In this document: in pieces, positions 13,902 to 50,803 of the stretch
Numbering within the stretch: position 1 is the first letter of the stretch
How the letters are laid out: every line of letters begins with the position of its first letter
From: a virus
Strand: one strand, 5' to 3'
DNA: 64,000 nucleotides
Virus record (IMG/VR): IMGVR_UViG_3300028883_000033
Location: 32,001-96,000 of that record
Made by a program: the position numbers and the translations under genes
The notes under the pieces: generated by a model
Told to the model about the DNA's origin: nothing
Database searches by the model: none
What the model saw: the letters and a program-made list of their open reading frames with translations, nothing else

Positions 13902-14420
13902 TTAATATCCCAGCAAATCGTCGTCTGATTTTTCTTCTTGTTCTAAACGATTAGCATCTTCCATGTGCTGATCATGGTCTTCTTCGTCGTGAGCAGGCCG
14001 TTGGCTTTCATACTCCATCTGGTAATTGTACGAGGGCGTCAATCCCTTGTCAACCAGAATTTCATCACGTATCACGCGCTGTCTTTTTTCTTGGTTGAGA
14101 TATTGTATGAAGGAATTCTTGATACATTGCGTGAAGAAAGCGAAGGGGTTGTTACTTTTGGCAGGATCGAAGCTGTTCCACGTTCTAACGAGCATCATCA
14201 TCGCATATGCCTGCATGTCCTCGTTATACGTATAGTTCGCAAAGTTTCCCTTTTTTCCATACCGGGCGGTTAAGAGCGTGAGCATCTTTGCGAGCTCGTT
14301 CGACATCTTCCCCTCTTCCTTGCTGATGATAACTTGCGCGAGGAGATCCTTATTGTTTAAGTATTTGGTTTTTCTCTTTGGTGTCGGCTTCTTTTGTGCC
14401 GCTTCTTGTTTTTTTGCCAT
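13902..14420 (-). CDS. gp55: Late transcription sigma factor (gp55-like)
   Basis: YLNNKDLL, NFANYTYNEDM, FDPAKSNNPFAFFTQ, EKRQ; T4 synteny 55-47-46. Confidence 0.9.
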   Translation of the reverse strand: MAKKQEAAQKKPTPKRKTKYLNNKDLLAQVIISKEEGKMSNELAKMLTLLTARYGKKGNFANYTYNEDMQAYAMMMLVRTWNSFDPAKSNNPFAFFTQCIKNSFIQYLNQEKRQRVIRDEILVDKGLTPSYNYQMEYESQRPAHDEEDHDQHMEDANRLEQEEKSDDDLLGY

Positions 14421-16197: not shown

Positions 16198-18288
16198 ATG
16201 TCAAATCCGAAGAACCCCTTAGATGTTTTCCGATCGTATGCATATCACCACATTCTAGTAGCATGTGACGGTACCAACACAGCTGACAGCCTTACTAGTG
16301 CTCCACTGTCGGCGTACGATCATCCCTCCAATAAATTTTGCCCCCAGTCTTTAACTGGTGCCGGGAATTATATTGTATTGATCAATGGAATGACTGATGC
16401 GCAGTTTTATATCAGTACTGCGAAGTGGTCATCAGTGATGATTCCCCGTGTTCGAGGACAAGGACAAACATCTGCTTCATCGACAATGGCTGTTGATGGC
16501 GAATTACAAATAGTTGAACCACGGGGGCTTAATTTTTACAACCTGTTAAACCAAGCAACTAAGTCACTTCGAATTGACCCGTCCGCGATGGTATATGTGC
16601 TCAAAACTATATTTGTTGGGATCACTGACGTGGGAACCGAAGAGGTAATCTCCACCATTAGGCCAATGCCGTTCATCCTTACTGATATAACATCGTCATT
16701 CAGTCACACTGGCGCAGAGTACAACATCTCGTTTGTGGGTATGGTTAATGGTGCTGGTAAGATGCCTCATGCGAACTCTATAGTTCAGGGATTTACTGGA
16801 ACGATCCCTCCAGGCAGTATTCCCGAGGCTCTGTCATATATCAAAGATCAACTCAATGAGTTATATCGAGATCAGCGAGCAAAGACGATTAATGCTGCAT
16901 CAACATGTGGTGTGGATAGGGATATTGTCGACATTGAAAATGAGTTTATGAATGTTGAATATGACATCAAAGTTTCGTCGAAATATGATAGTTATGTTGC
17001 AGGTAATGCTCTCCCTGCAAATCGCCAATCGACAGGAAATGGAGATTCACACATTTCTGACTTAGGTGAGTCAACGTCAATTGAACGAATCATCGATGAA
17101 GTGATGCGCTCATCTAAACAAGTTTTATCAGACCTTGAGGGCGAAGCGACGGATGACACCGAGACGTCTAAACGAAAGATGTATAAGATCACATCGGACG
17201 TTCAGATAGACCGATCGCAATCAAAGTATAAGGTAACGTATTACGTTAACCAATACGTTGGAACAGTTGTGCGTGCTGAAGATATAGAAACATATACCCC
17301 ACCAACTGGACCAACAGGCGAAAGTGTTGGAATTGAATTTGATTATATTTTTACTGGCGACAATATTGATATTATTGAGTTTGATATGGATATGCAGTAC
17401 GGTCTAACATTCCTTCAGATGCTTGGAACGAATAGCTCCTGTCCAACGTCACGGTTAGACAATAAGATGTTCGGTAACCCCGACACTCTTGTTGCAGGGA
17501 TAGGTAATAAAGATGGTGCGGGTGATCAGAAACCGCCAGCAGCGGGATGTTACAACTCCGATCAACCTTCAGACGATGTGGTAAAGAAGCCTCTGTTTCT
17601 TGGATCGATGCTAACGCACCCATCGTTTAGAGATACACGAACGCCCGGGGCCGCGGCTGGGTTTAATTCATTATTGCATAGAATAGCAGCGCTTGAAAAC
17701 ATCGGTGCTAAGATGAAGATACGTGGGAATCCACAACTTCTGGAAGATAGTATATTACAGCGTTCGGACCTTGAAGCGGCTGAAGAAATGATAACCCAAT
17801 CTGTACCAAACAGCGACCGGCCGTTGATACCAGGGACACACACAATCCCAGGGTATATTAAGGTGAACATAATGATGCCAAGAGCATGGCAGATGTCTGA
17901 AACGGAAGATTTGTCCAACCCTAATGATTATGTTATTGCAGATGCAGCTGGCGATTATGCTAGCGCGTTTTGGTATAAGGGATGGTATATGTTACTGCAG
18001 ATTGACCATGTATTCTCCGATGGTGAGTTTACTCAGGAGTTGGAAATCTACAGCTTACCTACTGACGCAGGTCAGTCGGGTATTGGTAAATGTATTGACG
18101 AAGCAGTATTCCCTCCAAAAGCAGATCCGGGTGGGCAAACAGTACCTGCTCCAGCGAATACAACATCAACGTCTACCAACGGTTCAGCTGCTACATCAAC
18201 AGGTGGCGCCGCCGCAGAGAGTGACAAAACTGTAGGTTCTATGAAACTTAATGAATTAGCCGCTAGGCGTAACGGTGCTGGAGAATAA
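16198..18288 (+). CDS. Baseplate hub protein (gp27/gpD-like)
   Basis: MKIRGNP and GWYMLLQIDHVFSDGEFTQEL C-terminal hub pattern; precedes gp5. Confidence 0.6.
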   Translation: MSNPKNPLDVFRSYAYHHILVACDGTNTADSLTSAPLSAYDHPSNKFCPQSLTGAGNYIVLINGMTDAQFYISTAKWSSVMIPRVRGQGQTSASSTMAVDGELQIVEPRGLNFYNLLNQATKSLRIDPSAMVYVLKTIFVGITDVGTEEVISTIRPMPFILTDITSSFSHTGAEYNISFVGMVNGAGKMPHANSIVQGFTGTIPPGSIPEALSYIKDQLNELYRDQRAKTINAASTCGVDRDIVDIENEFMNVEYDIKVSSKYDSYVAGNALPANRQSTGNGDSHISDLGESTSIERIIDEVMRSSKQVLSDLEGEATDDTETSKRKMYKITSDVQIDRSQSKYKVTYYVNQYVGTVVRAEDIETYTPPTGPTGESVGIEFDYIFTGDNIDIIEFDMDMQYGLTFLQMLGTNSSCPTSRLDNKMFGNPDTLVAGIGNKDGAGDQKPPAAGCYNSDQPSDDVVKKPLFLGSMLTHPSFRDTRTPGAAAGFNSLLHRIAALENIGAKMKIRGNPQLLEDSILQRSDLEAAEEMITQSVPNSDRPLIPGTHTIPGYIKVNIMMPRAWQMSETEDLSNPNDYVIADAAGDYASAFWYKGWYMLLQIDHVFSDGEFTQELEIYSLPTDAGQSGIGKCIDEAVFPPKADPGGQTVPAPANTTSTSTNGSAATSTGGAAAESDKTVGSMKLNELAARRNGAGE

Positions 18289-18290
18289 TA

Positions 18291-19871
18291 ATGTTCGGTC
18301 AAGGTTACCTAAGCTCAATACTACAAAAACAACTAAAGAGCGACCCAGCAACTCAATTCACTGTCGGCCGTGTGATTGACACAAATGACCCACAACAGAT
18401 GGGTCGAGTCCGTGTTCAATGTTCGGCGTGGGGTGATCATGGATCAAAGCTAGTTCGTGATATTCCCTTTGCTATGCCTGTTTCACCATTGGCAGGTTTA
18501 ATGATGACTGGTAAACGTGGCGCTGAAGAGGCAGAAGTTGATGGTCCGGTGTCATATGGTATGTGGAACATTCCTAAGATTGGCTCTTATGTTATCGTAG
18601 GCTGTATTGATGGCCATCGCGGCCGCCGTTTCTATATTGGCGGTATTCACCCACAGTTTATGACGCATACGATGCCTCATGGTCGGTACACGTGGCAGGA
18701 TCAGGCCAATGGAAAACCTGACGGCCCCCTTGATACGCATGAGAAACCGATCGAACCATTGTACAGCAACTTAACAGCAGCGTTTACGCCGAGAAAATCG
18801 ACAACAGAAGAAGTACCGGGAACGAGTTCCGTCAAGCCGCGTGAAAACCTTGAGTGGCGCTCACGCGGCCTGGACCGGCAAACTAGCGGCATAACCAACG
18901 AGCAGACTGCCAATACAGAAGACGGGCCTGGTAACAAAGTAGCTGATACGAAACCTGGTGAGCCTATTAAGATTACGCAAGAAGATGGATCAACCTATGA
19001 GCTTGATGGGCCAGGTTATTCCGTAAGCCAGGTTATTGAGGGAGAGAAGTATGACTCCACCGGAACGGGATATGATTCGCAAGTGTATTCGTGGACTACC
19101 CCTGGCTTTCATGCGTTCTCGATGGATGACCGAAAGGATAACTGTCGCATTCGGCTACGAACCACATCTGGTCACCAGATCATTATGGATGATACCAATG
19201 AGCGTATCTACATTAGTGCTGCAGGTGGAGAATCGTGGATTGAGATTGATAAAGTAGGAAACATTGATATCTATGCCAGCAAGAACATATCAACACATGC
19301 TGGTGGTGATATCAATTTCTTTTCCGATAAGTCAATCCGCATGCAAGCGAAAGAAGGGATCCATATGCGCACGGACGATGAGTTCCGGATTCATGCGGTG
19401 AAAGATTTTCATGTTCGTTCGGAGTTGAACATTCGAACTTATTCTGGGCAAGAGACTCGAATGGAGTCTACAGCTGATATGCATGTATTGGTACAAGGCT
19501 CCACATTTATAGGTTCGACTGGACCAATTCATGTAGGGACGCAAGGAACGATGCACCTATCGTCTACTGGGCGTTTGAATTTGACGAGTGGTAATTGGAT
19601 CGTAGGCGATGCACAGCAGGTGCACTGGAATAGTGCAGTTGCCACCCCGGCATCTGCTGCACAAGAAGCGTTGGAAATTCAGGCAAATTGGACAAGTCGT
19701 GTTCCTGAACACGAACCATGGGCTCGTGTGTTTATGAAAGAATCAGATAGTGATGCTACCGCAACTAATAAGGTAAACAAGCATACTCCTGAATATTCGT
19801 ACACAGATCAGCTGGTCGGTAAAGGTGGACGCGGGGATACGTACGAGCGTAACAAGTATTGGCATCGGTAA
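18291..19871 (+). CDS. gp5: Baseplate central spike (gp5/VgrG-like), no lysozyme domain
   Basis: OB-fold GRVIDTNDPQQMGRVRV, RTTSGHQIIMDDT, C-terminal beta-helix repeats, RVPEHEPW end. Confidence 0.85.
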   Translation: MFGQGYLSSILQKQLKSDPATQFTVGRVIDTNDPQQMGRVRVQCSAWGDHGSKLVRDIPFAMPVSPLAGLMMTGKRGAEEAEVDGPVSYGMWNIPKIGSYVIVGCIDGHRGRRFYIGGIHPQFMTHTMPHGRYTWQDQANGKPDGPLDTHEKPIEPLYSNLTAAFTPRKSTTEEVPGTSSVKPRENLEWRSRGLDRQTSGITNEQTANTEDGPGNKVADTKPGEPIKITQEDGSTYELDGPGYSVSQVIEGEKYDSTGTGYDSQVYSWTTPGFHAFSMDDRKDNCRIRLRTTSGHQIIMDDTNERIYISAAGGESWIEIDKVGNIDIYASKNISTHAGGDINFFSDKSIRMQAKEGIHMRTDDEFRIHAVKDFHVRSELNIRTYSGQETRMESTADMHVLVQGSTFIGSTGPIHVGTQGTMHLSSTGRLNLTSGNWIVGDAQQVHWNSAVATPASAAQEALEIQANWTSRVPEHEPWARVFMKESDSDATATNKVNKHTPEYSYTDQLVGKGGRGDTYERNKYWHR

Positions 19872-19920: not shown

Positions 19921-20307
19921 ATGGCAAATATTAAGGGTTTGTACAAAGGTTTTTCGAGTTTCGAGTTTCAGCGAAAGAAATCATTCAAGATACGTGATAT
20001 TGAGCTGGTAAAACTCGATCTCCTGAATCACATCTTCACCAAGCGAGGTGAGCGTGTGATGATGCCTACGTTTGGAACAGTGATTCCTGAGATGACGTTC
20101 GAACCTCTGGACCAAGATACGATTGAGATTATTGAGTCTGAGGTTACGCGTGTGCTGGAATACGATCCGCGTGTTGAAATTCTTAACATTGACGTGCAAC
20201 CCAATTATGATAATAATTCGCTATATGTTGGCGCTAAGGTGCTTTACGTTGAACTCAACCGCGTAGATAGCCTGGAATTGAATATACAGTTTGGAGAGTC
20301 TAGTTAA
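19921..20307 (+). CDS. gp25: Baseplate wedge gp25-like
   Basis: LLNHIFTKRGERVMMPTFG...FEP...YDPRV. Confidence 0.92.
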   Translation: MANIKGLYKGFSSFEFQRKKSFKIRDIELVKLDLLNHIFTKRGERVMMPTFGTVIPEMTFEPLDQDTIEIIESEVTRVLEYDPRVEILNIDVQPNYDNNSLYVGAKVLYVELNRVDSLELNIQFGESS

Positions 20308-23300
20308 TGGCAAGGGAAATATCACGCGCCGAGGCATGGGAACGAGCGCACGAAGTGTTCACGCAAGTGAACTTCAATGCGTTTGATTACAATTCGATTA
20401 AAGAAAGCCTACTTGATTACGTCAAGTTGTATTTCCCTGAAGATTTCAATGATTATATTGAGTCATCCGAGTTCATCGCAATACTCGAGTTGTTCGCTTA
20501 TGTTGGCGAACTACTGGCCTATCGTATTGATCTTAACGCTCATGAGAACTTCATAACAACCGCAAAACGTAAAGAATCTATCTTACGTCTTGCTAAACTG
20601 ATTTCGTATAAAGCCTCTCGCAACATTCCAGCCCGTGGCCTTGTTAAGATGACGTCGATTCAGACCACGGAAACTGTTATCGACTCTGCTGGCCGAAACC
20701 TTGCAGGTCGTCGAGTCTATTGGAATGATAGCAACAACCCTGACTGGAAAGAACAGTTCCTTCTTGTACTCAACCGCGTGTTGGAACAAGAGTTTGGCTC
20801 TGTTACGCCTGACGAACGCGTGCAAGTAAATGATGTATTGTTTGAGTTATACACATTAGACAATAACCCTTTCGGAACAGGAACGGCTGGCGTAATCCCA
20901 TTCACGGCTGATGCGGGTGGCGTTTCTGCTCCAATGGAAGTTGTGCCTATACAGCTGACTGCTAACGGTCCGACTGAGCGCCGTCCGGAGCGTAATGCTA
21001 AGTTTTCATTGACGTATGCTAATGATGGTCTTGGCGACGGGTCGGATACCACCGGCTTCCTGATGTATGTTAAGCAGGGCACCTTGGTACAACAGACGAC
21101 TACCTTTGATGGAGTAACACCCAACCAAACGTATGCTGTTAATGTTGATAACATTAACGAAACAGATCTGTGGCTAAACAACATTGATAGCTCCAGTGGT
21201 GAAATTCTCATTGATGATCCATATGCAACACTTCTGCCTCATCTCACTAGTGATGATTTGCGTTATGGAGAGTGGGTTGAAGTTGACTTAGCAAATGCTC
21301 AAAACATTATATTCAACACAAACAAGAATCGTCACAAGTATGAAGTTGAAACGCTCGATAATGATCAGATCCGTATCATTTTTGGTGATGGTGAGTTTTC
21401 AGACATTCCATCTGGAACTTTTCAGATGTGGTATCGCACATCCCTCAATGATGATTATGTGATCGAAAAAACAGCTGTTATTGATCAATCAGCATCCATC
21501 TCATATACTGACATTGTTGGAACAGTTCAAACACTAACCTTTACGTTCTCCCTAACATCATCCCTGCAAAATGCATCCGCGTCGGAGGATATTGAACACA
21601 TCCGCCGTGTTGCACCATCAGTGTACTACACGCAGGATCGTATGGTAAATGGCCGTGATTATAATGTATTCATGTTACAGGATCCTTCCATATTGAAATT
21701 GCGGTCGGTAAACCGCACATTTGCTGGGGATTCAAAATACATTGCATGGCACGATCCGCGTGAAAATTATGAAGATGTGAAATTGTTCGGAGATGATCTG
21801 GCAATATTCTGGGCGGAAGAGGATCCGGTATCTGGTGATGTTGCTACAGTTGCCGCGTCTACGAGCGTGAATAGTATCATTGAAAACTACCTTGAGCCGT
21901 TATTATCAACTACAGATTTCTTCGCTAAGATTGCTCCAAAGCGCGAAGCGTTGGGGCTTGCAGGTGGGGATGTTCGAACATACTTCAAAACAGATACGTA
22001 TACGTTTGGACTCGACATTAACGGCCAGGATAATGAGATTGATGCTCTGAGTTATGCGTTGAATAATATAACAACATACATTGATTTGTACTATTCCGTG
22101 TTTTACGATGAGTGGACGGTGGGTGAACACCCAACACCAGACGCTGATTCCGATTGGATGATTCGTGTTGATCAGGATGTTACGGATTGGGAGATTTCGT
22201 GGTTGACTCGCCGATTAATTGTCCAGAGTGAACAGACAAAGTTCTGGAATACTAACACAACTGAACGCGTTGTAAACTTCGATACGATCAATTCACAAGG
22301 CGATCACATTGTTATTCTGAAGGCAAACGTTAATGCTAATGGGGATGGTTTGCTTAATGCTAACCGAAACTATAATGTCCTTGCACAAGAGCTACTTGAT
22401 GATAATGCAGGTAACTTGCCTGATATTCATCGGTTGTCGGTAATGCCGGTTGATGTTAATGGAGATAATATCCCTGATAATCTATTGCAGCCTGCATTGT
22501 TTGATGCTGAGTTTACTGGAACTTGGACTGAACTGTTAGCTAGTGGTCTGGGTGTGGATACTGGAACCCAGTACATTGATCTTAGTGTCGTAGGAAAAGT
22601 AATAAACAACAGCACGTCAAAGGGACGCGATAATGATATTGTAATCACGGTTGATGGAACCCCTCTGACGTTTGAGAGTACTCAACTGCAGGCTGATGTG
22701 TCCGATGCCAATAATTTAATCATTAGTCGGATAAATTTATTCCCAACATTACCGCTAACTGGGCCTGAAAATATTGTTATTTCCGTTAGAGACTATGTCT
22801 ACTTTTACCGTGATGATAATCTGAGCCCTTGGGTTCCTATGGAAGACACAGAAGCTAACCGAGTTCGATACTTATCTGAAGACCCCGATCTTCTGGAATC
22901 GTCATTACGTTACGATCGCCGTGAAGGACGATATCCACTAAACTTCGCGTGGTTCCACTACACTCCACGACTGAATCTGGTTGATCCTGCTGCTTCGAAT
23001 ATCATCGATACATATATCATCACTAAAGGATATTATACATCAACGAGACGTTGGCTTGAGAACAAGACGGATGTTGAGCCAGAAGCACCTACACCTCTGG
23101 AACTACGGTCAGCGTACGCAAATCTCCTTGACAATAAGATGATTTCCGACACTGTAGTCTTACATTCTGGTAAATTCAAGATTCTGTTTGGGTCACGGGC
23201 TATTCCTCAGCTGCAAGCCACGTTTAAAGTTGTTCGTCCGGACCAAACATCTAAAACAGACAACCAGGTTAAGGTTGAGATTGTTAATGCTATTCGGGCA

Positions 23301-23546
23301 TTCTTTGATATTGATGCATGGGAATTTGGTGAAACTTTCTTCTTTACTGAACTTTCCGCTTCAATTCACGCTGCGCTTGGCCCGGAAATTGACTCAGTTC
23401 TTCTCGTTCCAAACTACTCACAAAATCAGTTTGGCGATCTATTCCAGATCTATTCACGAGAGGATGAAATCTTTGTTCCTGATATTAGCACATCTAACAT
23501 TGAAATCATAGAATCCATCACCCCAGATAACATCAGGCAAGATTAA
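20307..23546 (+). CDS. gp6: Baseplate wedge gp6-like (expanded)
   Basis: FDYNSIKESL, FNDYIESSE, ENFITTAKRKES, IFGDG, EDIEHIRRVAP, TQDRMVNGRDY. Confidence 0.88.
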   Translation: MAREISRAEAWERAHEVFTQVNFNAFDYNSIKESLLDYVKLYFPEDFNDYIESSEFIAILELFAYVGELLAYRIDLNAHENFITTAKRKESILRLAKLISYKASRNIPARGLVKMTSIQTTETVIDSAGRNLAGRRVYWNDSNNPDWKEQFLLVLNRVLEQEFGSVTPDERVQVNDVLFELYTLDNNPFGTGTAGVIPFTADAGGVSAPMEVVPIQLTANGPTERRPERNAKFSLTYANDGLGDGSDTTGFLMYVKQGTLVQQTTTFDGVTPNQTYAVNVDNINETDLWLNNIDSSSGEILIDDPYATLLPHLTSDDLRYGEWVEVDLANAQNIIFNTNKNRHKYEVETLDNDQIRIIFGDGEFSDIPSGTFQMWYRTSLNDDYVIEKTAVIDQSASISYTDIVGTVQTLTFTFSLTSSLQNASASEDIEHIRRVAPSVYYTQDRMVNGRDYNVFMLQDPSILKLRSVNRTFAGDSKYIAWHDPRENYEDVKLFGDDLAIFWAEEDPVSGDVATVAASTSVNSIIENYLEPLLSTTDFFAKIAPKREALGLAGGDVRTYFKTDTYTFGLDINGQDNEIDALSYALNNITTYIDLYYSVFYDEWTVGEHPTPDADSDWMIRVDQDVTDWEISWLTRRLIVQSEQTKFWNTNTTERVVNFDTINSQGDHIVILKANVNANGDGLLNANRNYNVLAQELLDDNAGNLPDIHRLSVMPVDVNGDNIPDNLLQPALFDAEFTGTWTELLASGLGVDTGTQYIDLSVVGKVINNSTSKGRDNDIVITVDGTPLTFESTQLQADVSDANNLIISRINLFPTLPLTGPENIVISVRDYVYFYRDDNLSPWVPMEDTEANRVRYLSEDPDLLESSLRYDRREGRYPLNFAWFHYTPRLNLVDPAASNIIDTYIITKGYYTSTRRWLENKTDVEPEAPTPLELRSAYANLLDNKMISDTVVLHSGKFKILFGSRAIPQLQATFKVVRPDQTSKTDNQVKVEIVNAIRAFFDIDAWEFGETFFFTELSASIHAALGPEIDSVLLVPNYSQNQFGDLFQIYSREDEIFVPDISTSNIEIIESITPDNIRQD

Positions 23547-29600: not shown

Positions 29601-32600
29601 TCCGAATTGATCCGGTTCGGTTTATGTACCTAGCGTTTGGCCCTGAATACCATCAGATAGCTGGATTGTTGATCGATAAGCGTCTTGAACAGGTGATGTC
29701 GCATGCTAACACTGAATTCCATGGCGATATCATTAATGACAAAGAAGTACTGAAATTCAATGGTATTAACCAGTGGTATGTCAACTATCTCCGTTATACT
29801 GGAGTGGACATTAGTATGTCTGACTTCCGTACATCGTGGACTCAGTGGACGGCACCTATGATGTATCAGTTCTCTTCGTTCATTGATACACCATCATTGG
29901 ATGTAGCTCATCGCCAGGTATGTATTAGTGAGTTTGATTATAGAATAGCATCTAAGCGCTCTCCAGGAGCTGAAGACTACTGGTTAGATTCGTTTGATAT
30001 CTACACTCTATCAATTCCACCAAAACTTGCTCGGTATGATAATGAGTTCCAGTGGAAGTTTGAAATCACAACGAAGCCTCCATATACGAAGACGGTATCG
30101 TATTATGATGTTCAGAATTATCAGTTCTATGCTGATCCTGATACTGATCTATGTACGATGTACTCGTGGCTAGTTGATGATATGAGCTTCTTCAACGACA
30201 CGTTTACCGTTCGTGGCGATCAGACAGAATTCTTTGCAGCAAACAGAACGTTTGATGTTGTTGAGTCTACAGACAATAACGGAACGTATACTATTATTAG
30301 TTCCGTATACAACGCTGTTACGGATCAGACTTTGATCCAAGTAAGTGAAAACGTTACTGGTGTTGTAAAAGATGGACGCATAATTCTTAACTATAGAGCA
30401 TTGCCATGGCAGACGGGTGAAGCTGTGGTGCTGTCAACGCATGAAACATTGCCAGCTCCGTTACAAATGGATAATACTAATGGTGTATACTATTACTTCT
30501 TCATTCGCGAAACCCACAACACTTTCCGTCTAGCAACAACCCGAACGGAAGCTGAAGCTGGCAATTATGTCAACATTACAACGAAGGGAAGAAGCGACCA
30601 TTATGTAGGTAAAGTCCAGACGACATTCACCGACGGCGTTCAAACTTCTAAATTCTGGCGTCATTATGCACTCGACACTGCAACAGTACGTACGTTTATG
30701 CCACCATATGACGTGTCCGGTTTCCAGGGCATCATTAACATCATAGATGGATACGAACAGTACACTAAGGATCAGGGCTGGAGATTTAACGTTGATGGAA
30801 CATTGCGTGATCCAGGCAACACAACATATGCCGTAAACTGGCAGCACGAGCTGCGTCGGTTCATTCAGTATAACTACAACCTGCGTGCTATTCGCACAAA
30901 AGTTGAAGATCGTTTCCCTGTGACTGTTAACGTTGGTTCTAATGTTTGGACGATTACTGATAACAGTCGCCCATACTTCATTACTGGGGATCCTGTAACA
31001 ATATTCTCTTCGAATGGTGTATACCCACCTCCGTTGGTTCGAGGCGGTCGTTACTACATGATTCGTGATGAAATCTCCAACTTTAGATTGGCGGCAACAA
31101 AAGCTGATGCTACTGCTGGGGTATCAATCGATATAACGGATGATGCTGGAACGGAAAAACTGTTCCTAACTAAAGCGGCAATCCTAACACAGAATGCTCC
31201 TAGGTTTGAACTTAACCCATTCAGAAATGCAGTTTGGTTCCGTCCGGAGCGTGGTATTGTTTCCAACTTACTAACCGGTCCTACAGATGATGTGTTTACA
31301 TCTCAGTTAATGGTTGATCAGTACGGTCGTCCAATGAACCAGGACGCTGTTCGCATCTTCCGTGAAGATAAAGAAACAAAGATCACCATAGAAGATCAGC
31401 TTGATAATGATGTGGAACCAATCCGCATAACTCAGAATCCGTACAACTATATTCATCTTGGTGCAGTTCATTTGTTTGTTGATACGTATGAACACGTAAT
31501 GGTGTTTAACGATAACACAACCGAAGGGCAGTTACTATACGACCCATTCGTTGGATTGAACTTGACCAAGTTCGAGATGTTGTTCAACAGGCAGTTGGAA
31601 TTTACACAACGTCCAAACGTTGGTGGTCAGTATTTGAGTACGTTCTATAACCAAGGCGCAGATCTCAATCGCAACATTGAAGCGAGCATTGAAGATTTGC
31701 GTAATCTATATGACACCTATCAAGTCATTGAGGCCAACGAACTGGTACTACAATCTCGTAAGACGATGGGGTATGAAGGTCGCGAAGACTACCTCGATAA
31801 CCTCAACCTGAACGCAAAATCACAGTTTGCATTCTGGCGTGGTCAGATACAAACCAAAGGTGCGATGAGTTCCGTTAATGCATTCGTTAACTCCCGTCGA
31901 TTCATTGATGCTAAGGTAGATGAGTTCTGGGCATATAAGATCGGTGAATTCGGTTCATCCCAGGATAAAGATTATATCGAGATGTGGTTGAAACTTAATG
32001 ACGCACGAAGTGATGAACTCCGACTGCAGTTTGTTAGTGAGGATGATTTGTGCGACTCTGGTTATGCTGCTAACGTATATGATTCTGCTTGCGGTTTTGC
32101 TTTCCCAATTTCCGGAACGGGTGTGTTGGTTGTTGAAAGTGGATGGACTGGAATTTCAATCACTGATTCATCTCGCTGGGTTAACTACCCTGATCAGTTG
32201 GCTGAGTTGAATGATAACAACGGTATCCTGTATTTTGATCTGCGGTTGCGTCCTGAGAAGATGCTTGAAGTAAGTTCGGCAGATCCTAGCGACATCATTG
32301 TTAGTACAGGATCACCAGCAACAACGGACAACTACATTCGTCACAACTTTGCTTGTGACTTCGTGACGATTACTGGCAACCTAGGTTATCCAGCAAATCA
32401 CTACATCGACAGTACTGTAGGAAGTGTGATGTATCCTATGGCGGCGGACGGTCGTAGTTCAACAGTGTCTGAATATATTCCGTTCTCTAATATGGTCCGT
32501 GTATTTAAGGGAACCTACAATACTTCAGATCCAGCATATGATCCTTCTAATCCAAGCCCTTCATTCATTGGCGAGGAGATGATCAATGGTGTTGATTATA

Positions 32601-48963: not shown

Positions 48964-48992
48964 TAAAGAGTTAAGTTGTTTCTCTCCAAAAG

Positions 48993-49019
48993 AAAAGGCC
49001 CGCTTTAGCGGGCCTTTTT
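48993..49019. terminator. Bidirectional intrinsic terminator between convergent genes
   Basis: AAAAGGCCCGC-TTTA-GCGGGCCTTTTT. Confidence 0.9.
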
Positions 49020-49048: not shown

Positions 49049-49588
49049 TTATTCAGCGGACTTCTTTGTTGTACGACGCTTTGGCGCAGGAGCTGGAGCT
49101 TCTGCGGCAGCTGGAGCAGGGGCAGGTGCCGCCTGTGTGCCACGAATAGCAGCAGCTGCAGCATCGGCAGCCGCATTTGCAGCGGCCCGAGCTGCGATCT
49201 GAGCCTGTTCTTCCATAGCAGCGCGTGCCTCTTTACCGCGAGTATCAATAATACCTTCAGTACCGATAACACCTTCACGTGGTCTCATGCGCTTACCGTT
49301 AGGGGTAATCAGTTCAACGAGCTGGTGGAAGTAGGTTAGGGCATTAACGCCGTTATTCAGTGTAATCTGACTCATCAGATCCCAAAGCTCGAACGTGTTT
49401 GCGTTGCGGTTAGAAAGGATACGTGCAAGACGTCCTTTATCAATCTTATCCAGAGCGTTCAGTGGAAAGAAATAAATGTTACCAAGGCCGTCCTTTTTCA
49501 TAACGGCACATTCAGTGTATATACCGTCATTGGCAAGGTCAATCCAAAACAGATGCGGCATATTTCCAGGTTGCATACTTACGGCCAT
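49049..49588 (-). CDS. Hypothetical protein with Ala/Pro-rich tail
   Basis: Start revised to ATG 49588 (GGAGA RBS; TAAATA at 49635-49640). Confidence 0.7.
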   Translation of the reverse strand: MAVSMQPGNMPHLFWIDLANDGIYTECAVMKKDGLGNIYFFPLNALDKIDKGRLARILSNRNANTFELWDLMSQITLNNGVNALTYFHQLVELITPNGKRMRPREGVIGTEGIIDTRGKEARAAMEEQAQIAARAAANAAADAAAAAIRGTQAAPAPAPAAAEAPAPAPKRRTTKKSAE

Positions 49589-49676
49589 CGTAAAATCTCC
49601 TATGTTTGTTATTATACAATTGGTTCGTTGGAAATATTTACGGTCGAACTTTAGGTGGGTAACCAATCAATTTGGG

Positions 49677-50762
49677 TTACCCCAGGCGCCTAAGACCGGG
49701 GGCATAAGATGAAGATGATACCTGAGTTAGAACTGATTTTCTATGTCCTGATGAGTTTGTACTGATGTGAATCCATGGGTTTTTTCCGAACCACTCTAAG
49801 ATAATCTGATCGTAGTCAAAATTGTCACGAATGTACTGTGCCAGATCATAATATTGCTGTCCGGTATTTCCTGTTCCGTGGAATGAGAAGAACTGAAGAT
49901 CAGTAGCTTGACCCTTATTATGCTGGCTACCGCCTGATTTGTTACGCCACCCTGACGTTATAACAAAGGGAGGAACGTTGGAATCGGCACGCAGCGGCTC
50001 GAGAACAGTTTTTGCGTGGAAGCACAGGTTTTGCAGTATCTGCTTCTGTGATAAACCACATGGCTGTGTTACAGCAGACGAGAACCTGTATGTACTCACT
50101 GCAGGGCCAATTGTAAGATCATATGCTGTGTAATTTGCTGATAATGCAACGCTTGACGCAAACGTGTCAAAATCGGGGTATGGTGGAGATCCAGTTGCCC
50201 AGCTAAAGCTAGCACTGAGATTATCAATGTCTGTGCAATTTGCTGCGGGTGGTATATTAGGCGGAGGTTGAACTGAATCCTGTTCTTGCTCGGTTATGGG
50301 TTTTACCTCAGAACTTGTGAATACTGTTTCGGCACCAGGATTAATCTCTTCAGGAACGTCATTGTTTTCGAATACGTATCGATCTTGTTCGGTTGGAATT
50401 ATCTTTCGTCCAGTACCCAAAGTTATGATTGGTGCCCCTGCCAGTGGTTCGCTGTTATCGAAAATCGCACCGCCACCGCCTCCATCGGTGAATACATTAG
50501 GAGAGCCAGCAACTCGGGGGTGCCCGCACGTGTCTGGATCGCCAGCACTATTCACCGGAATGTTTTCAGCAAATACCGTAGGACCGCCGTTCGCGGTGTT
50601 GGGGGAGCAGTGGATATTGCCATTGCTACATGCGGCGTCGGGAGATACGGAAGACCCGTCCGTTGAAACCAGCAGATTGTTAGCATACACGGTTCCTTGT
50701 GTGGTTCCGGTGACTGAGCCACCAGCGCTATTGGAATCTGTTAATCTGTGAGTTCTTGGCAT
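49677..50762 (-). CDS. PAAR spike-tip protein fused to M15-family Zn peptidase
   Basis: N-terminal ~95 aa PAAR (TVYANN, TVFAENIP, CGH, GSPNVF); C-terminal ITSGWR..SQH..QATD..WIHIS. Confidence 0.85.
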   Translation of the reverse strand: MPRTHRLTDSNSAGGSVTGTTQGTVYANNLLVSTDGSSVSPDAACSNGNIHCSPNTANGGPTVFAENIPVNSAGDPDTCGHPRVAGSPNVFTDGGGGGAIFDNSEPLAGAPIITLGTGRKIIPTEQDRYVFENNDVPEEINPGAETVFTSSEVKPITEQEQDSVQPPPNIPPAANCTDIDNLSASFSWATGSPPYPDFDTFASSVALSANYTAYDLTIGPAVSTYRFSSAVTQPCGLSQKQILQNLCFHAKTVLEPLRADSNVPPFVITSGWRNKSGGSQHNKGQATDLQFFSFHGTGNTGQQYYDLAQYIRDNFDYDQIILEWFGKNPWIHISTNSSGHRKSVLTQVSSSSYAPGLRRLG

Positions 50763-50788
50763 GTATGGTTATGCTCCTATTTTGCCCC

Positions 50789-50803
50789 TATTTATCATAA
50801 ATA
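50789..50803. promoter_or_regulatory. Overlapping divergent late promoters
   Basis: TATTTATCATAAATA = GATAAATA (minus) + CATAAATA (plus). Confidence 0.7.

Follow-up and report, generated by a model that had tools for sequence, protein, structure and literature searches.

How a tailed phage breaches the bacterial cell wall when its central spike protein carries no recognisable lysozyme is the question raised by one locus of an uncultured giant phage, known from a T4-like jumbo-phage record of 147 kb (IMG/VR record IMGVR_UViG_3300028883_000033) that is about 43% complete, with about 57% of the genome unseen. In the textbook case of T4, three lysozyme domains are buried in the spike and the tip is bare. 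Here, a gene far from the spike gene joins a PAAR cone to a putative zinc peptidase. The window analysed was the whole stretch of 64,000 nucleotides from positions 32,001 to 96,000 of the record. We consider it probable (roughly 0.72) that the product is the tip protein of the central tail spike, with a tethered zinc peptidase, expressed late and cutting the wall at entry. The gene and its parts were as follows.

49677..50762, minus strand: PAAR-M15 fusion gene P0001, an ORF of 361 aa matching PHROG 281 and PHROG 894
50478..50762, minus strand: PAAR cone domain, residues 1-95, assigned by VIA-align (Z 12-14.9 to known PAARs) and by family profile against the PDB
50253..50477, minus strand: linker, residues 96-170, acidic and proline-containing, with 9 Pro and 9 Glu in 75 residues
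49680..50252, minus strand: putative LAS/M15-type zinc peptidase domain, residues 171-361, assigned by fold match to 1lbu, conserved motifs and relatives matching PF08291
49920-49922, 49899-49901 and 49767-49769, minus strand: predicted Zn ligands H281, D288 and H332, invariant columns
49794-49796, minus strand: predicted general base E323, invariant column
49944-49946, minus strand: predicted substrate-binding Arg R273, invariant column

The earlier note on this DNA had read the N-terminus as a PAAR domain, which was borne out by profiles and structure. PHROG 281 matched it at 8.6e-9. The single sequence scored 19.2 bits against PF05488, under the 27-bit Pfam cut-off, and 32 of 45 homologues matched the same model (best E 9e-10); a profile of the 45 homologues found the solved PAARs c1882 (E 2.4e-10) and T4 gp5.4 (E 6e-7), which places the sequence in the PAAR family at the profile level. 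A phmmer search of the protein against PDB sequences gave one match only, a spurious cystatin (E 0.15). In the AF2 model of the protein (pLDDT 92, pTM 0.85), residues 2-94 superposed on phiKZ gp163.1 (6p1z_D) with Z 14.9 and rmsd 1.4 A (86/87 residues aligned, VIA), followed by c1882 (4jiw_D, Z 14.1), T4 gp5.4 (5iv5, Z 13.9) and P1 UpfC (Z 12.0), and Foldseek gave a probability of 1.00 for the PAAR fold. The predicted cone of three intertwined beta-hairpins with three PAAR-like repeats is a secure assignment, and H5, C45, H51, C52, C79 and H81 (sequence positions) are the His/Cys candidates for the tip metal site. A linker was present after the cone, as had been claimed, and it contained proline (9/75 residues), but it was acidic rather than strongly Pro-rich; its length and sequence varied among homologues, of which 60 were found, the majority full length, and its pLDDT was 72-89 with some secondary structure in the model.

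The C-terminal domain is a predicted cutter of the bacterial cell wall, judging by sequence motifs and the model. All four motifs named in the earlier note (SGWR with R273, SQH with H281, ATD with D288 and WIH with H332) existed and were invariant in 45 homologues, as were D318, E323 and W330. The zinc motif read SQH281NKGQATD288 plus WIH332, with E323 and R273, and the Zn triad, the Glu and the SxxR Arg did not vary among the 45 full-length homologues and the 28 domain sequences, whose identity was only 31-42%. Model residues 171-359 matched the Streptomyces albus Zn DD-peptidase 1lbu (Z 8.5, rmsd 3.1 A, 127 residues aligned, 21% identity; Foldseek E 9e-3), while hedgehog N-domains (Z 4.6-4.8) and VldE, VanX, Ply500, T5 endolysin and LdcB (Z 2.8-4.3) followed at lower scores. 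The domain has the zinc-triad residues and, in the model, the fold of LAS/MEROPS M15 peptidases. The Pfam M15 models did not match the protein itself even at E<=1; PF08291 (Peptidase_M15_3) was matched by 24 of 28 domain relatives (best E 2.4e-20) and by 26 of the 45 full-length homologues (best E 2e-4), and the PF08291-positive domain relatives matched the protein at E 1e-14 to 1e-25. The M15 homology is therefore transitive, and the assignment is one suggested jointly by fold, motifs and these relatives.

The spike gene and its neighbours lay elsewhere in the window.

16198..18288, plus strand: gene in hub (gp27) position, upstream of gp5, 696 aa, matching PHROG 11190 'virion structural protein' only
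18291..19871, plus strand: gp5-like central spike P0061, 526 aa, with Pfam Phage_base_V (OB fold) and DUF2345 (beta-helix) only
19921..23546, plus strand: gp25-like and gp6-like baseplate wedge genes (PHROG 261, PHROG 10646), directly after gp5 with none between

The distance from the gp5 gene to the fusion gene was about 29.8 kb, in accordance with the 30 kb stated earlier. The spike protein comprised an OB fold (about residues 20-120), a beta-helix (about 260-450) and a conserved C-terminal tail of 60 residues; residues 120-260 were mostly coil with three short helices in the model. The tail after the beta-helix counts against a simple reading in which PAAR caps the helix. Foldseek and VIA matched the gp5 model to spike proteins only, and the T4 gp5 beta-helix fragment superposed on residues 338-447 with rmsd 1.6 A. 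A T4-type GH24 lysozyme between the OB fold and the beta-helix was not present in this gp5. The search for a hidden hydrolase in gp5 by Pfam, Foldseek and all-against-all structural comparison returned only spike, OB-fold and beta-helix matches, in a list dominated by the OB fold; a small cryptic domain could still sit in residues 120-260. The claim that gp5 shows OB-fold and beta-helix but no lysozyme motifs was therefore upheld by Pfam, Foldseek and VIA alike; the 'tail lysozyme' label of PHROG 13211 on gp5 was a name only, with no lysozyme domain by Pfam. The HxH apex motif was not found in the spike sequence, and a spike lacking HxH has been taken as a sign that a separate tip protein is needed (Leiman-lab preprint, PMC12407873). 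In the whole 147-kb record, about 43% complete, Phage_lysozyme (PF00959), SLT (PF01464), SLT_3, M23, Amidase_2, M15_3 and M15_4 gave no match, and its large structural proteins had no Pfam domain at all. At this completeness, a second PAAR, an endolysin or another tail lysin may sit in the missing part. The putative hub gene occupied the same place as the gene preceding gp5 in XacN1 and PA5oct; in XacN1, an M23 peptidase gene sits between gp5 and gp25.

The next point concerned when the fusion gene is expressed, which the following features address.

50789..50796, minus strand: late-promoter-like box GATAAATA, 27 nt upstream of the ATG of the fusion gene
50774..50778, minus strand: Shine-Dalgarno-like AGGAG, 11 nt ahead of the ATG, read from the sequence
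49049..49666, minus strand: conserved downstream gene, 205 aa as listed, co-oriented with the fusion gene, adjacent and syntenic in loci L012-L015
48992..49019, no strand assigned: terminator-like hairpin of 12 pairs, 7 of them G-C, between convergent genes
13902..14420, minus strand: gp55-like late sigma factor (PHROG 234, E 3e-29)

The box GATAAATA was found in front of structural genes as well, and the proposal of an own late promoter gained support from its position. The record had 41 ATAAATA sites, a number not enriched overall (about 35 by a rough base-composition estimate), but their placement was non-random: 0.5 would be expected 14-35 nt upstream of a start codon, and 23/41 were found there. 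In the window, the exact T4 late consensus TATAAATA showed no enrichment (3 sites vs 2.1 expected). The downstream gene probably encodes 179 aa rather than 205, starting at Met27 (49588). PHROG, Pfam and protein Atlas searches gave no match for it, and a role in immunity or as a chaperone, which was considered, found no support. An A-run before the hairpin stem and a T-run after it mean that the hairpin could work in both directions, and, as far as sequence can tell, it probably ends a late unit of two genes. The fusion gene lay between the RNase H, clamp and DNA polymerase genes and the structural genes.

Considering these results, we propose the following process of entry. The fusion gene would be transcribed late from its own ATAAATA-type promoter, jointly with the one small conserved gene, and we infer that the product is then carried in the virion, docked on gp5. 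The PAAR cone would sit on the blunt end of the trimeric gp5-like beta-helix as its cap, one copy per virion being expected, and the linker of roughly 75 residues would tether the zinc-dependent LAS/M15 peptidase to it. Sheath contraction would drive spike and tip through the outer membrane into the periplasm; the P2 spike protein has been recovered from the periplasmic fraction after infection (PMC12407873). There the tethered peptidase may cut peptide stems or cross-links of peptidoglycan locally, allowing the tail tube to pass, and would thereby do the job of the lysozyme domain of T4 gp5.

The survey of PAAR-M15 fusions suggested in the earlier note placed this arrangement among others. 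Among the best 80 IMG/VR loci with this peptidase domain, ten were PAAR fusions and 42 had the domain at the C-terminus of long proteins, in which Gp5_OB was matched in seven of the eight scanned, weakly in some. A bare PAAR ORF of 81-103 aa followed within about 800 nt downstream in 25 of these 42 loci, 16 of them within 10 nt. In five loci (L016, L017, L018, L024 and L027), the fusion gene followed a short gp5 (318-423 aa), either immediately or with one gene in between, which is the place of gp5.4 in T4, and the four gp5 proteins scanned (all but that of L027) showed no domains besides Gp5_OB and Gp5_C. Some relatives whose PAAR is similar, at 51-56% identity, bore CHAP in place of M15. On the peptidase-domain tree, whose backbone was poorly supported, PAAR fusion needed 3 changes, and the well-supported branches forced at least 2. 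Origin of the fusion by read-through from the gene order 'gp5-M15 then PAAR' was considered and rejected, since the PAAR precedes the M15 domain in the fusion.

A different function would be that of an endolysin or dual-use lysin, degrading the wall from within late in infection, with the PAAR as a leftover or targeting module. The label of PHROG 894 is 'endolysin', the 147-kb record yielded no further family of peptidoglycan hydrolases, and late expression would fit this function too, but several observations render it unlikely. No holin- or spanin-like gene was recognised among the neighbours. The 16 stand-alone peptidase forms placed in the tree, 150-163 aa long, made a separate clade with 100/100 support, and the domain of the fusion protein grouped with the gp5- and PAAR-fused forms instead. 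Its PAAR domain is intact and is of a kind that forms the sole PAAR of near-complete relatives, and with about 57% of the genome unseen the real endolysin may simply be missing from the record. The homologue in PA5oct also speaks for the virion. Its record carries an ESI-MS/MS flag, and the PA5oct paper gives it as a virion-detected "tail muramyl-pentapeptidase"; we took 'gp245' of that paper to be RefSeq gp239 from identical wording, not from an accession number. In the same paper, gp368 went undetected with the virion particles, which the authors read as a sign that it is possibly the PA5oct endolysin. Since the mass-spectrometry list given there also includes non-structural enzymes, the detection of the homologue is suggestive of a tip location rather than proof of it.

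A second alternative accepts the tip location but makes the fusion one of several tips, a bare PAAR being the default and the fusion sitting on a fraction of virions, a choice like that of type VI secretion. The record, at 43% completeness, leaves room for another PAAR, and a gene amid replication genes and 30 kb from the baseplate module could suit an optional part. However, the fusion was the only PAAR match in the complete genome of PA5oct and likewise in a 97%-complete and an 87%-complete IMG/VR relative, and none of the ten fusion loci had a second PAAR within 10 kb, so we hold this quite unlikely.

It is also conceivable that the C-terminal domain is an inactive LAS domain, peptidoglycan-binding or structural and hedgehog-like, that anchors or orients the tip. 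The top PDB matches by sequence profile were hedgehog N-domains, which are not known as peptidases, and the peptidase-domain profile aligned SxHxxGxAxD, E and xH with conserved Sonic hedgehog motifs (E 0.004); position -2 from the last His is Trp, not the His of the classical HxH, and the sequence lacked a Pfam M15 match of its own. Against this, invariance of the Zn triad, the Glu and the SxxR Arg at such low identity is the pattern expected from purifying selection on an active site, and the relatives that exchange the domain take CHAP, a wall-cutting fold, not a binding module. Loss of activity is therefore very unlikely in our judgement. The notion of a moron gene, whose product would load onto the host's type VI secretion system as an antibacterial effector, takes support from the category of PHROG 281 ('moron, auxiliary metabolic gene and host takeover') and from an architecture that mimics specialised PAAR effectors, but is highly improbable given the late structural-type promoter motif, the synteny kept inside lytic jumbo-phage genomes, the adjoining of the gene to gp5 in other phages, near-complete relatives with no other PAAR for their own spike and the lack of a recognisable immunity gene.

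A spike tip with a tethered peptidase, expressed late and acting at entry, thus remained the preferred explanation. Beyond this one phage, it may be that the M15 family, with CHAP and SLT_3 as alternatives, is a dedicated and exchangeable spike-complex lysin of contractile phages that shifts between the C-terminus of gp5 and that of the PAAR tip, which would correspond in phages to the 'evolved VgrG / specialised PAAR' principle of type VI secretion and may even have given rise to it, with one enzyme molecule on the tip being, in phages like this one, the only wall-cutting device needed for genome entry. This is a tentative proposal, to which we would give slightly less than even odds.

The earlier note had implied more novelty than we found, since homologous fusions were already annotated in public phage genomes. 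It is evident that the gene family is not new, because the PA5oct homologue had already been published and related genes stand in public phage records. We found no paper in the literature describing the arrangement of PAAR plus lysin, and the fusion runs counter to the generalisation, published in one survey, that the PAARs of jumbo phages carry no fused domain (PMC7824862). In this phage, the one wall-cutting enzyme that could be recognised would sit on a monomeric tip, and the same enzyme family is found on gp5 in other phages; if the proposal is true, phages, like type VI secretion systems, use their central spike complex as a modular carrier on which enzymes can be exchanged. PA5oct, Pseudomonas putida phages of the Peetri group and Vibrio phages are cultured systems in which lysin copy number and site at entry could be followed. 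Furthermore, tip-tethered peptidases acting from outside on Gram-negative walls would be of practical interest as enzyme antibacterials.

One close comparison is with the T4 spike complex, which shares with this phage an OB-fold and beta-helix spike, the PAAR fold of gp5.4, one wall-cutting enzyme and late expression, a T4-like late sigma factor and baseplate genes being present here. In T4, the enzyme is a GH24 muramidase inside the trimeric gp5 and gp5.4 follows gp5, whereas here a predicted zinc peptidase is placed on a monomeric tip, so that a virion would be expected to carry one copy as against three in T4, and the tip is encoded 30 kb away from gp5. The PA5oct homologue, 29% identical across 86% of the length, also joins a PAAR to a peptidase and is the sole PAAR of its genome; its gene likewise lies away from gp5, among nucleotide-metabolism genes, and its gp5 has OB and DUF2345 only. 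Unlike the present phage, which is known from sequence alone, PA5oct has been grown in culture, and MS of its virion preparations picked up the protein. The available passages of the PA5oct paper mention neither a PAAR domain nor a location at the tip.

Specialised PAAR effectors and evolved VgrGs of type VI secretion (VgrG3 of Vibrio cholerae) resemble the fusion in bearing a C-terminal enzymatic domain on a PAAR or spike and acting in the target periplasm. In the model, the fusion has the N-terminal PAAR and C-terminal enzymatic domain of such effectors, and exchange of the enzyme on a conserved carrier is also seen here, with M15 or CHAP on PAAR and M15 or SLT_3 on gp5. The idea of an enzyme delivered as a T6SS-style specialised PAAR therefore stood as regards architecture, and the tip location that it implies was strengthened by the sole-PAAR relatives, the gp5.4-like position and the PA5oct mass spectrometry. 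It did not stand as regards genomic setting: this is a late virion gene of a lytic phage, not of a bacterial genome with T6SS core genes and an immunity gene, and T6SS genes and a recognisable immunity gene were absent from the record. Such effectors kill competitors, whereas the presumed purpose here is entry of the phage's own DNA.

Among enzymes, the S. albus G zinc DD-peptidase (1lbu; MEROPS M15A) shares the LAS fold and the H-x6-D...H zinc motif with the predicted peptidase, and the phage M15 endolysins (T5 endolysin, Ply500, LysB4) share the same motif and, at Z about 3, the fold. These have HxH or DxxH before the last ligand, whereas the present domain has WxH, a very divergent sequence and a PAAR fused to it. 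The nearest isolates, Xanthomonas phage XacN1 and Ralstonia phage RsoM2USA (DNA polymerase 38-46% and gp5 29-36% identical), also associate a wall hydrolase with the spike module, but by other means. XacN1 has a 926-aa gp5 with C-terminal SLT_3 (lysozyme-like), the adjacent M23 gene and no detectable PAAR; in RsoM2USA, a 557-aa M23 'MepM' gene adjoins a bare 96-aa PAAR gene. Finally, Caulobacter phage Cr30, Methylophilales phage Melnitz and many IMG/VR contigs have a gp5 with a C-terminal M15 of the same family, at 35-37% identity to the present domain (E 2e-23 to 4e-20). There too the spike complex carries the peptidase, and the next gene is often a bare PAAR; with the spike protein as carrier, a virion would be expected to have three copies of the enzyme. 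Thus, in the Cr30 and Melnitz type the M15 domain is on the spike and the PAAR is bare, whereas in the present phage the M15 domain is on the PAAR and the spike is bare.

The N-terminal domain of the PAAR-M15 fusion (49677–50762, minus strand, 361 aa) is securely a PAAR domain. The PHROGs PAAR family matched residues 11–110 (8.6e-9), and the Pfam PAAR score of 19.2 bits lay below the 27-bit cut-off. Sixty homologues were found, mostly full length and 40–75% identical, and 45 of them were aligned (A1) as input for an AlphaFold model of the fusion (pLDDT 92, pTM 0.85). Residues 2–94 of this model superposed on solved PAAR tips, namely phiKZ gp163.1 (Z 14.9, rmsd 1.4 Å, 86 aligned), E. coli c1882 (Z 14.1), T4 gp5.4 (Z 13.9) and P1 UpfC (Z 12.0), and Foldseek agreed. 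By sequence alone, the A1 profile matched c1882 (E 2.4e-10) and gp5.4 (6e-7), and the N-terminal PAAR named in the earlier note was borne out. The fusion also contains two Gly-Ser-Pro tripeptides, one of which (G86-S87-P88, window 50499–50507) lies within GSPNVF, the family consensus; with G86 and S87 nearly invariant across the alignment, fold conservation accounts for this copy.

By fold, motif and transitive homology, the C-terminal domain belongs to the LAS/M15 group as a divergent member. Residues 171–359 matched the Streptomyces albus zinc DD-peptidase 1lbu (Z 8.5, rmsd 3.1 Å, 127 aligned, 21% identity) and, more weakly, hedgehog N-domains, VldE, VanX, Ply500, T5 endolysin and LdcB, all of LAS fold. 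None of the Pfam M15 models detected the window protein itself, although its relatives match Peptidase_M15_3 (24 of 28 domain relatives, best E 2.4e-20; weakly, 26 of 45 full-length homologues), so the homology is transitive. Residues 232–358 matched an 'endolysin' PHROG family (4.4e-10), a label that would suit an endolysin or dual-use lysin; here the domain sits behind a PAAR cone, and that reading is weaker than one as a tip enzyme. The four motifs previously named, SGWR (R273), SQH (H281), ATD (D288) and WIH (H332), were all present and invariant, as were D318, E323 and W330. With a profile of the peptidase domain only (A3, 28 sequences), SxHxxGxAxD, a Glu and the last His fell on conserved Sonic hedgehog motifs (E 0.004) that correspond to its zinc ligands and nearby Glu. 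This correspondence supports a zinc triad of H281, D288 and H332, with E323 the probable general base. An inactive binding domain could share the fold; with this active site conserved, it is the weaker reading beside an enzyme that would be active on a peptidoglycan bond. The linker of 75 residues, variable among homologues, had been described as proline-rich; it is better called acidic and proline-containing (9 Pro, 9 Glu) than strongly proline-rich.

The gp5-like central spike (18291–19871, plus strand, 526 aa) carries no recognizable enzyme. Pfam found Phage_base_V and DUF2345 only, and the GH24, SLT, SLT_3, M23, Amidase_2 and M15 families were not detectable in the 147-kb record (~43% of the genome), whose giant structural proteins had no Pfam domain whatever. 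The gp5 model (pLDDT 81) matched T4 gp5, VgrGs, eCIS spikes and pyocin spikes, with an OB fold at about residues 20–120 and a beta-helix that fitted the T4 gp5 helix fragment with an rmsd of 1.6 Å over residues 338–447. Residues 120–260 were mostly coil with three short helices in the whole-protein model and do not appear to resemble a lysozyme. The claim that gp5 lacks lysozyme therefore stood, and no hidden hydrolase emerged from Pfam or from structural comparison of the whole-protein gp5 model. The HxH motif was absent from the gp5 sequence; a Leiman-laboratory preprint (PMC12407873) regards spikes without a C-terminal HxH motif as those requiring a tip protein of their own. Beyond the beta-helix, gp5 has a 60-residue tail (~466–526, window 19686–19868), in which R470, P472, H474, E475, R479, Y504, R520, W524 and R526 are among many residues invariant across 51 homologues; gp5 of XacN1 and PA5oct aligned with window gp5 only up to residue ~462–466.

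From comparative evidence, we infer that the fusion is the working tip and entry enzyme. PF05488 had a single match each in PA5oct (complete) and in 97%-complete and 87%-complete IMG/VR genomes, and in each case it was the fusion; that the fusion is one of several alternative tips is a weaker explanation. Five other viral contigs have the fusion gene directly after gp5 or one gene later, which is where T4 has gp5.4. Their gp5 is short (318–423 aa), with only Gp5_OB and Gp5_C in all four scanned with Pfam.

The fusion gene has its own late promoter motif, as the earlier note had proposed. Of 41 ATAAATA sites in the record, 23 precede a start codon on the same strand by 14–35 nt, where 0.5 would be expected, and most of the 23 are in front of structural genes. 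The features around the fusion gene are as follows:
50796–50803, plus strand: mirror-image box CATAAATA, serving the divergent gene
50789–50796, minus strand: late-promoter-like box GATAAATA, 27 nt upstream of the PAAR-M15 ATG
between GATAAATA and the PAAR-M15 ATG, minus strand: AGGAG
49049–49666, minus strand, as PAAR-M15: conserved downstream gene (g205)
48992–49019: strong terminator-like hairpin after g205

The two boxes, for PAAR-M15 and the divergent gene, stand back to back (50789–50803) with a one-base overlap. From the position of CATAAATA, the divergent gene probably starts at Met26 (50836), not at 50761. The promoter box, the co-oriented conserved gene and the hairpin suggest that PAAR-M15 and g205 may form a two-gene late transcription unit. 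The true start of g205 is likely Met27 at 49588; its product has a conserved N-terminal part (residues ~28–140) and an Ala/Pro-rich, basic C-terminus, and gave no family, fold or Atlas lead. Four related contigs share the gene order clamp, g127, RNase H, PAAR-M15, g205, g414; in two of them the small divergent gene before the fusion was detected. A T6SS moron is a weaker account of a gene so placed.

Considering the above results, we propose a model with a probability of roughly 70%. One PAAR-M15 molecule would dock on the gp5 trimer in the baseplate as its cap and so be present in the virion, sheath contraction would drive it through the outer membrane, and the tethered peptidase would open up the sacculus's peptide network in front of the tail tube. 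The record of the PA5oct homologue, gp239, is marked ESI-MS/MS and 'muramoyl-pentapeptidase', which is supportive rather than decisive for a virion role, since the PA5oct mass-spectrometry list also includes non-structural enzymes. Peptidoglycan lies in the periplasm. The P2 spike protein was recovered from the periplasmic fraction after infection (PMC12407873).

The same peptidase domain also rides on other carriers. Among the 80 best IMG/VR loci with this domain, it was C-terminal on proteins of 480–900 aa in 42, stood alone (100–163 aa) in 19 and was fused to PAAR in 10; the suggested survey thus recovered such fusions there and in public phage records. Of the 42 long proteins, eight were scanned and seven matched Gp5_OB, some weakly; a bare PAAR ORF of 81–103 aa lay within ~800 nt downstream in 25 of the 42 loci, and within 10 nt in 16. 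Likewise, Cr30 has the order 'gp5-M15 then PAAR', and in Melnitz the domain ends an annotated 'baseplate hub subunit/tail lysozyme'. In a maximum-likelihood tree, the 16 stand-alone forms included made one clade and the window's domain grouped with other PAAR-fused forms (both 100/100), with backbone support too weak for counting fusion events. Conversely, PAAR homologues 51–56% identical to the window cone carry CHAP/NlpC-P60 instead of M15 (P0053, P0055 and P0057; 331–337 aa), and related PAAR-CHAP genes occur on IMG/VR viral contigs (L092–L094). In P0050, P0052 and P0059, PAAR is followed by C-terminal parts without a Pfam match. One 903-aa spike (L023:4570–7281), followed by a bare PAAR gene, combines Gp5_OB, a VgrG3-like C-terminal domain (Pfam E 1e-47) and a C-terminal M15_3, and may bear two wall-degrading modules.

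Homologous fusions in public records come from the PA5oct group, the Peetri group of P. putida phages, Pseudomonas phage Astolliot and Vibrio phages 207E48.1, 1.244.A and 1.255.O; their annotations vary between 'PAAR motif protein', 'tail lysozyme' and 'hypothetical'. Our literature search found no paper describing a phage PAAR tip with a lysin. A jumbo-phage survey reported phage PAARs 'unfused to any effector domain' (PMC7824862), and one PAAR survey covered prokaryotic genomes only. Spike complexes with 'facultative enzymatic ... domains' are mentioned in a figure legend of the T4 tip preprint (PMC12407873), so additions of this general kind are familiar to specialists. The group is already sequenced and, as far as we found in the literature, as yet undescribed, and this gene is one more member.

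At a CheckV completeness of ~43%, the 147,644-bp IMG/VR record, whose bases 32001–96000 form the window, points to a jumbo myovirus genome of about 340 kb. T4-type genes in the window encode a gp46/47-like nuclease, a gp55-like late sigma factor, gp25-like and gp6-like baseplate wedge proteins, a T4-like portal, RNase H, a sliding clamp and a family-B DNA polymerase. The isolates closest by polymerase are Xanthomonas phages Xoo-sp13 and XacN1 (46% identity), followed by Stenotrophomonas RAS14/CM1 and Ralstonia RsoM2USA; the Rak2/121Q group (polymerase) and PA5oct (gp5) are farther. PAAR was not detected in XacN1, Xoo-sp13 or RAS14, whose gp5 genes encode 926–990 aa. At the XacN1 locus AP018399.1 196318–199952, the 926-aa gp5 (ORF321, annotated 'hypothetical') carries an SLT_3 lysozyme-like domain at its C-terminus (Pfam E 6e-16), and an M23 peptidase gene follows immediately. 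In RsoM2USA an M23 'MepM' gene adjoins a bare PAAR gene. Judged from these genes, a wall hydrolase is always tied to the spike complex in this group, with a shifting attachment point. The fusion follows the logic of a specialised PAAR and would, on the proposed model, serve as the central spike's virion-associated wall hydrolase.
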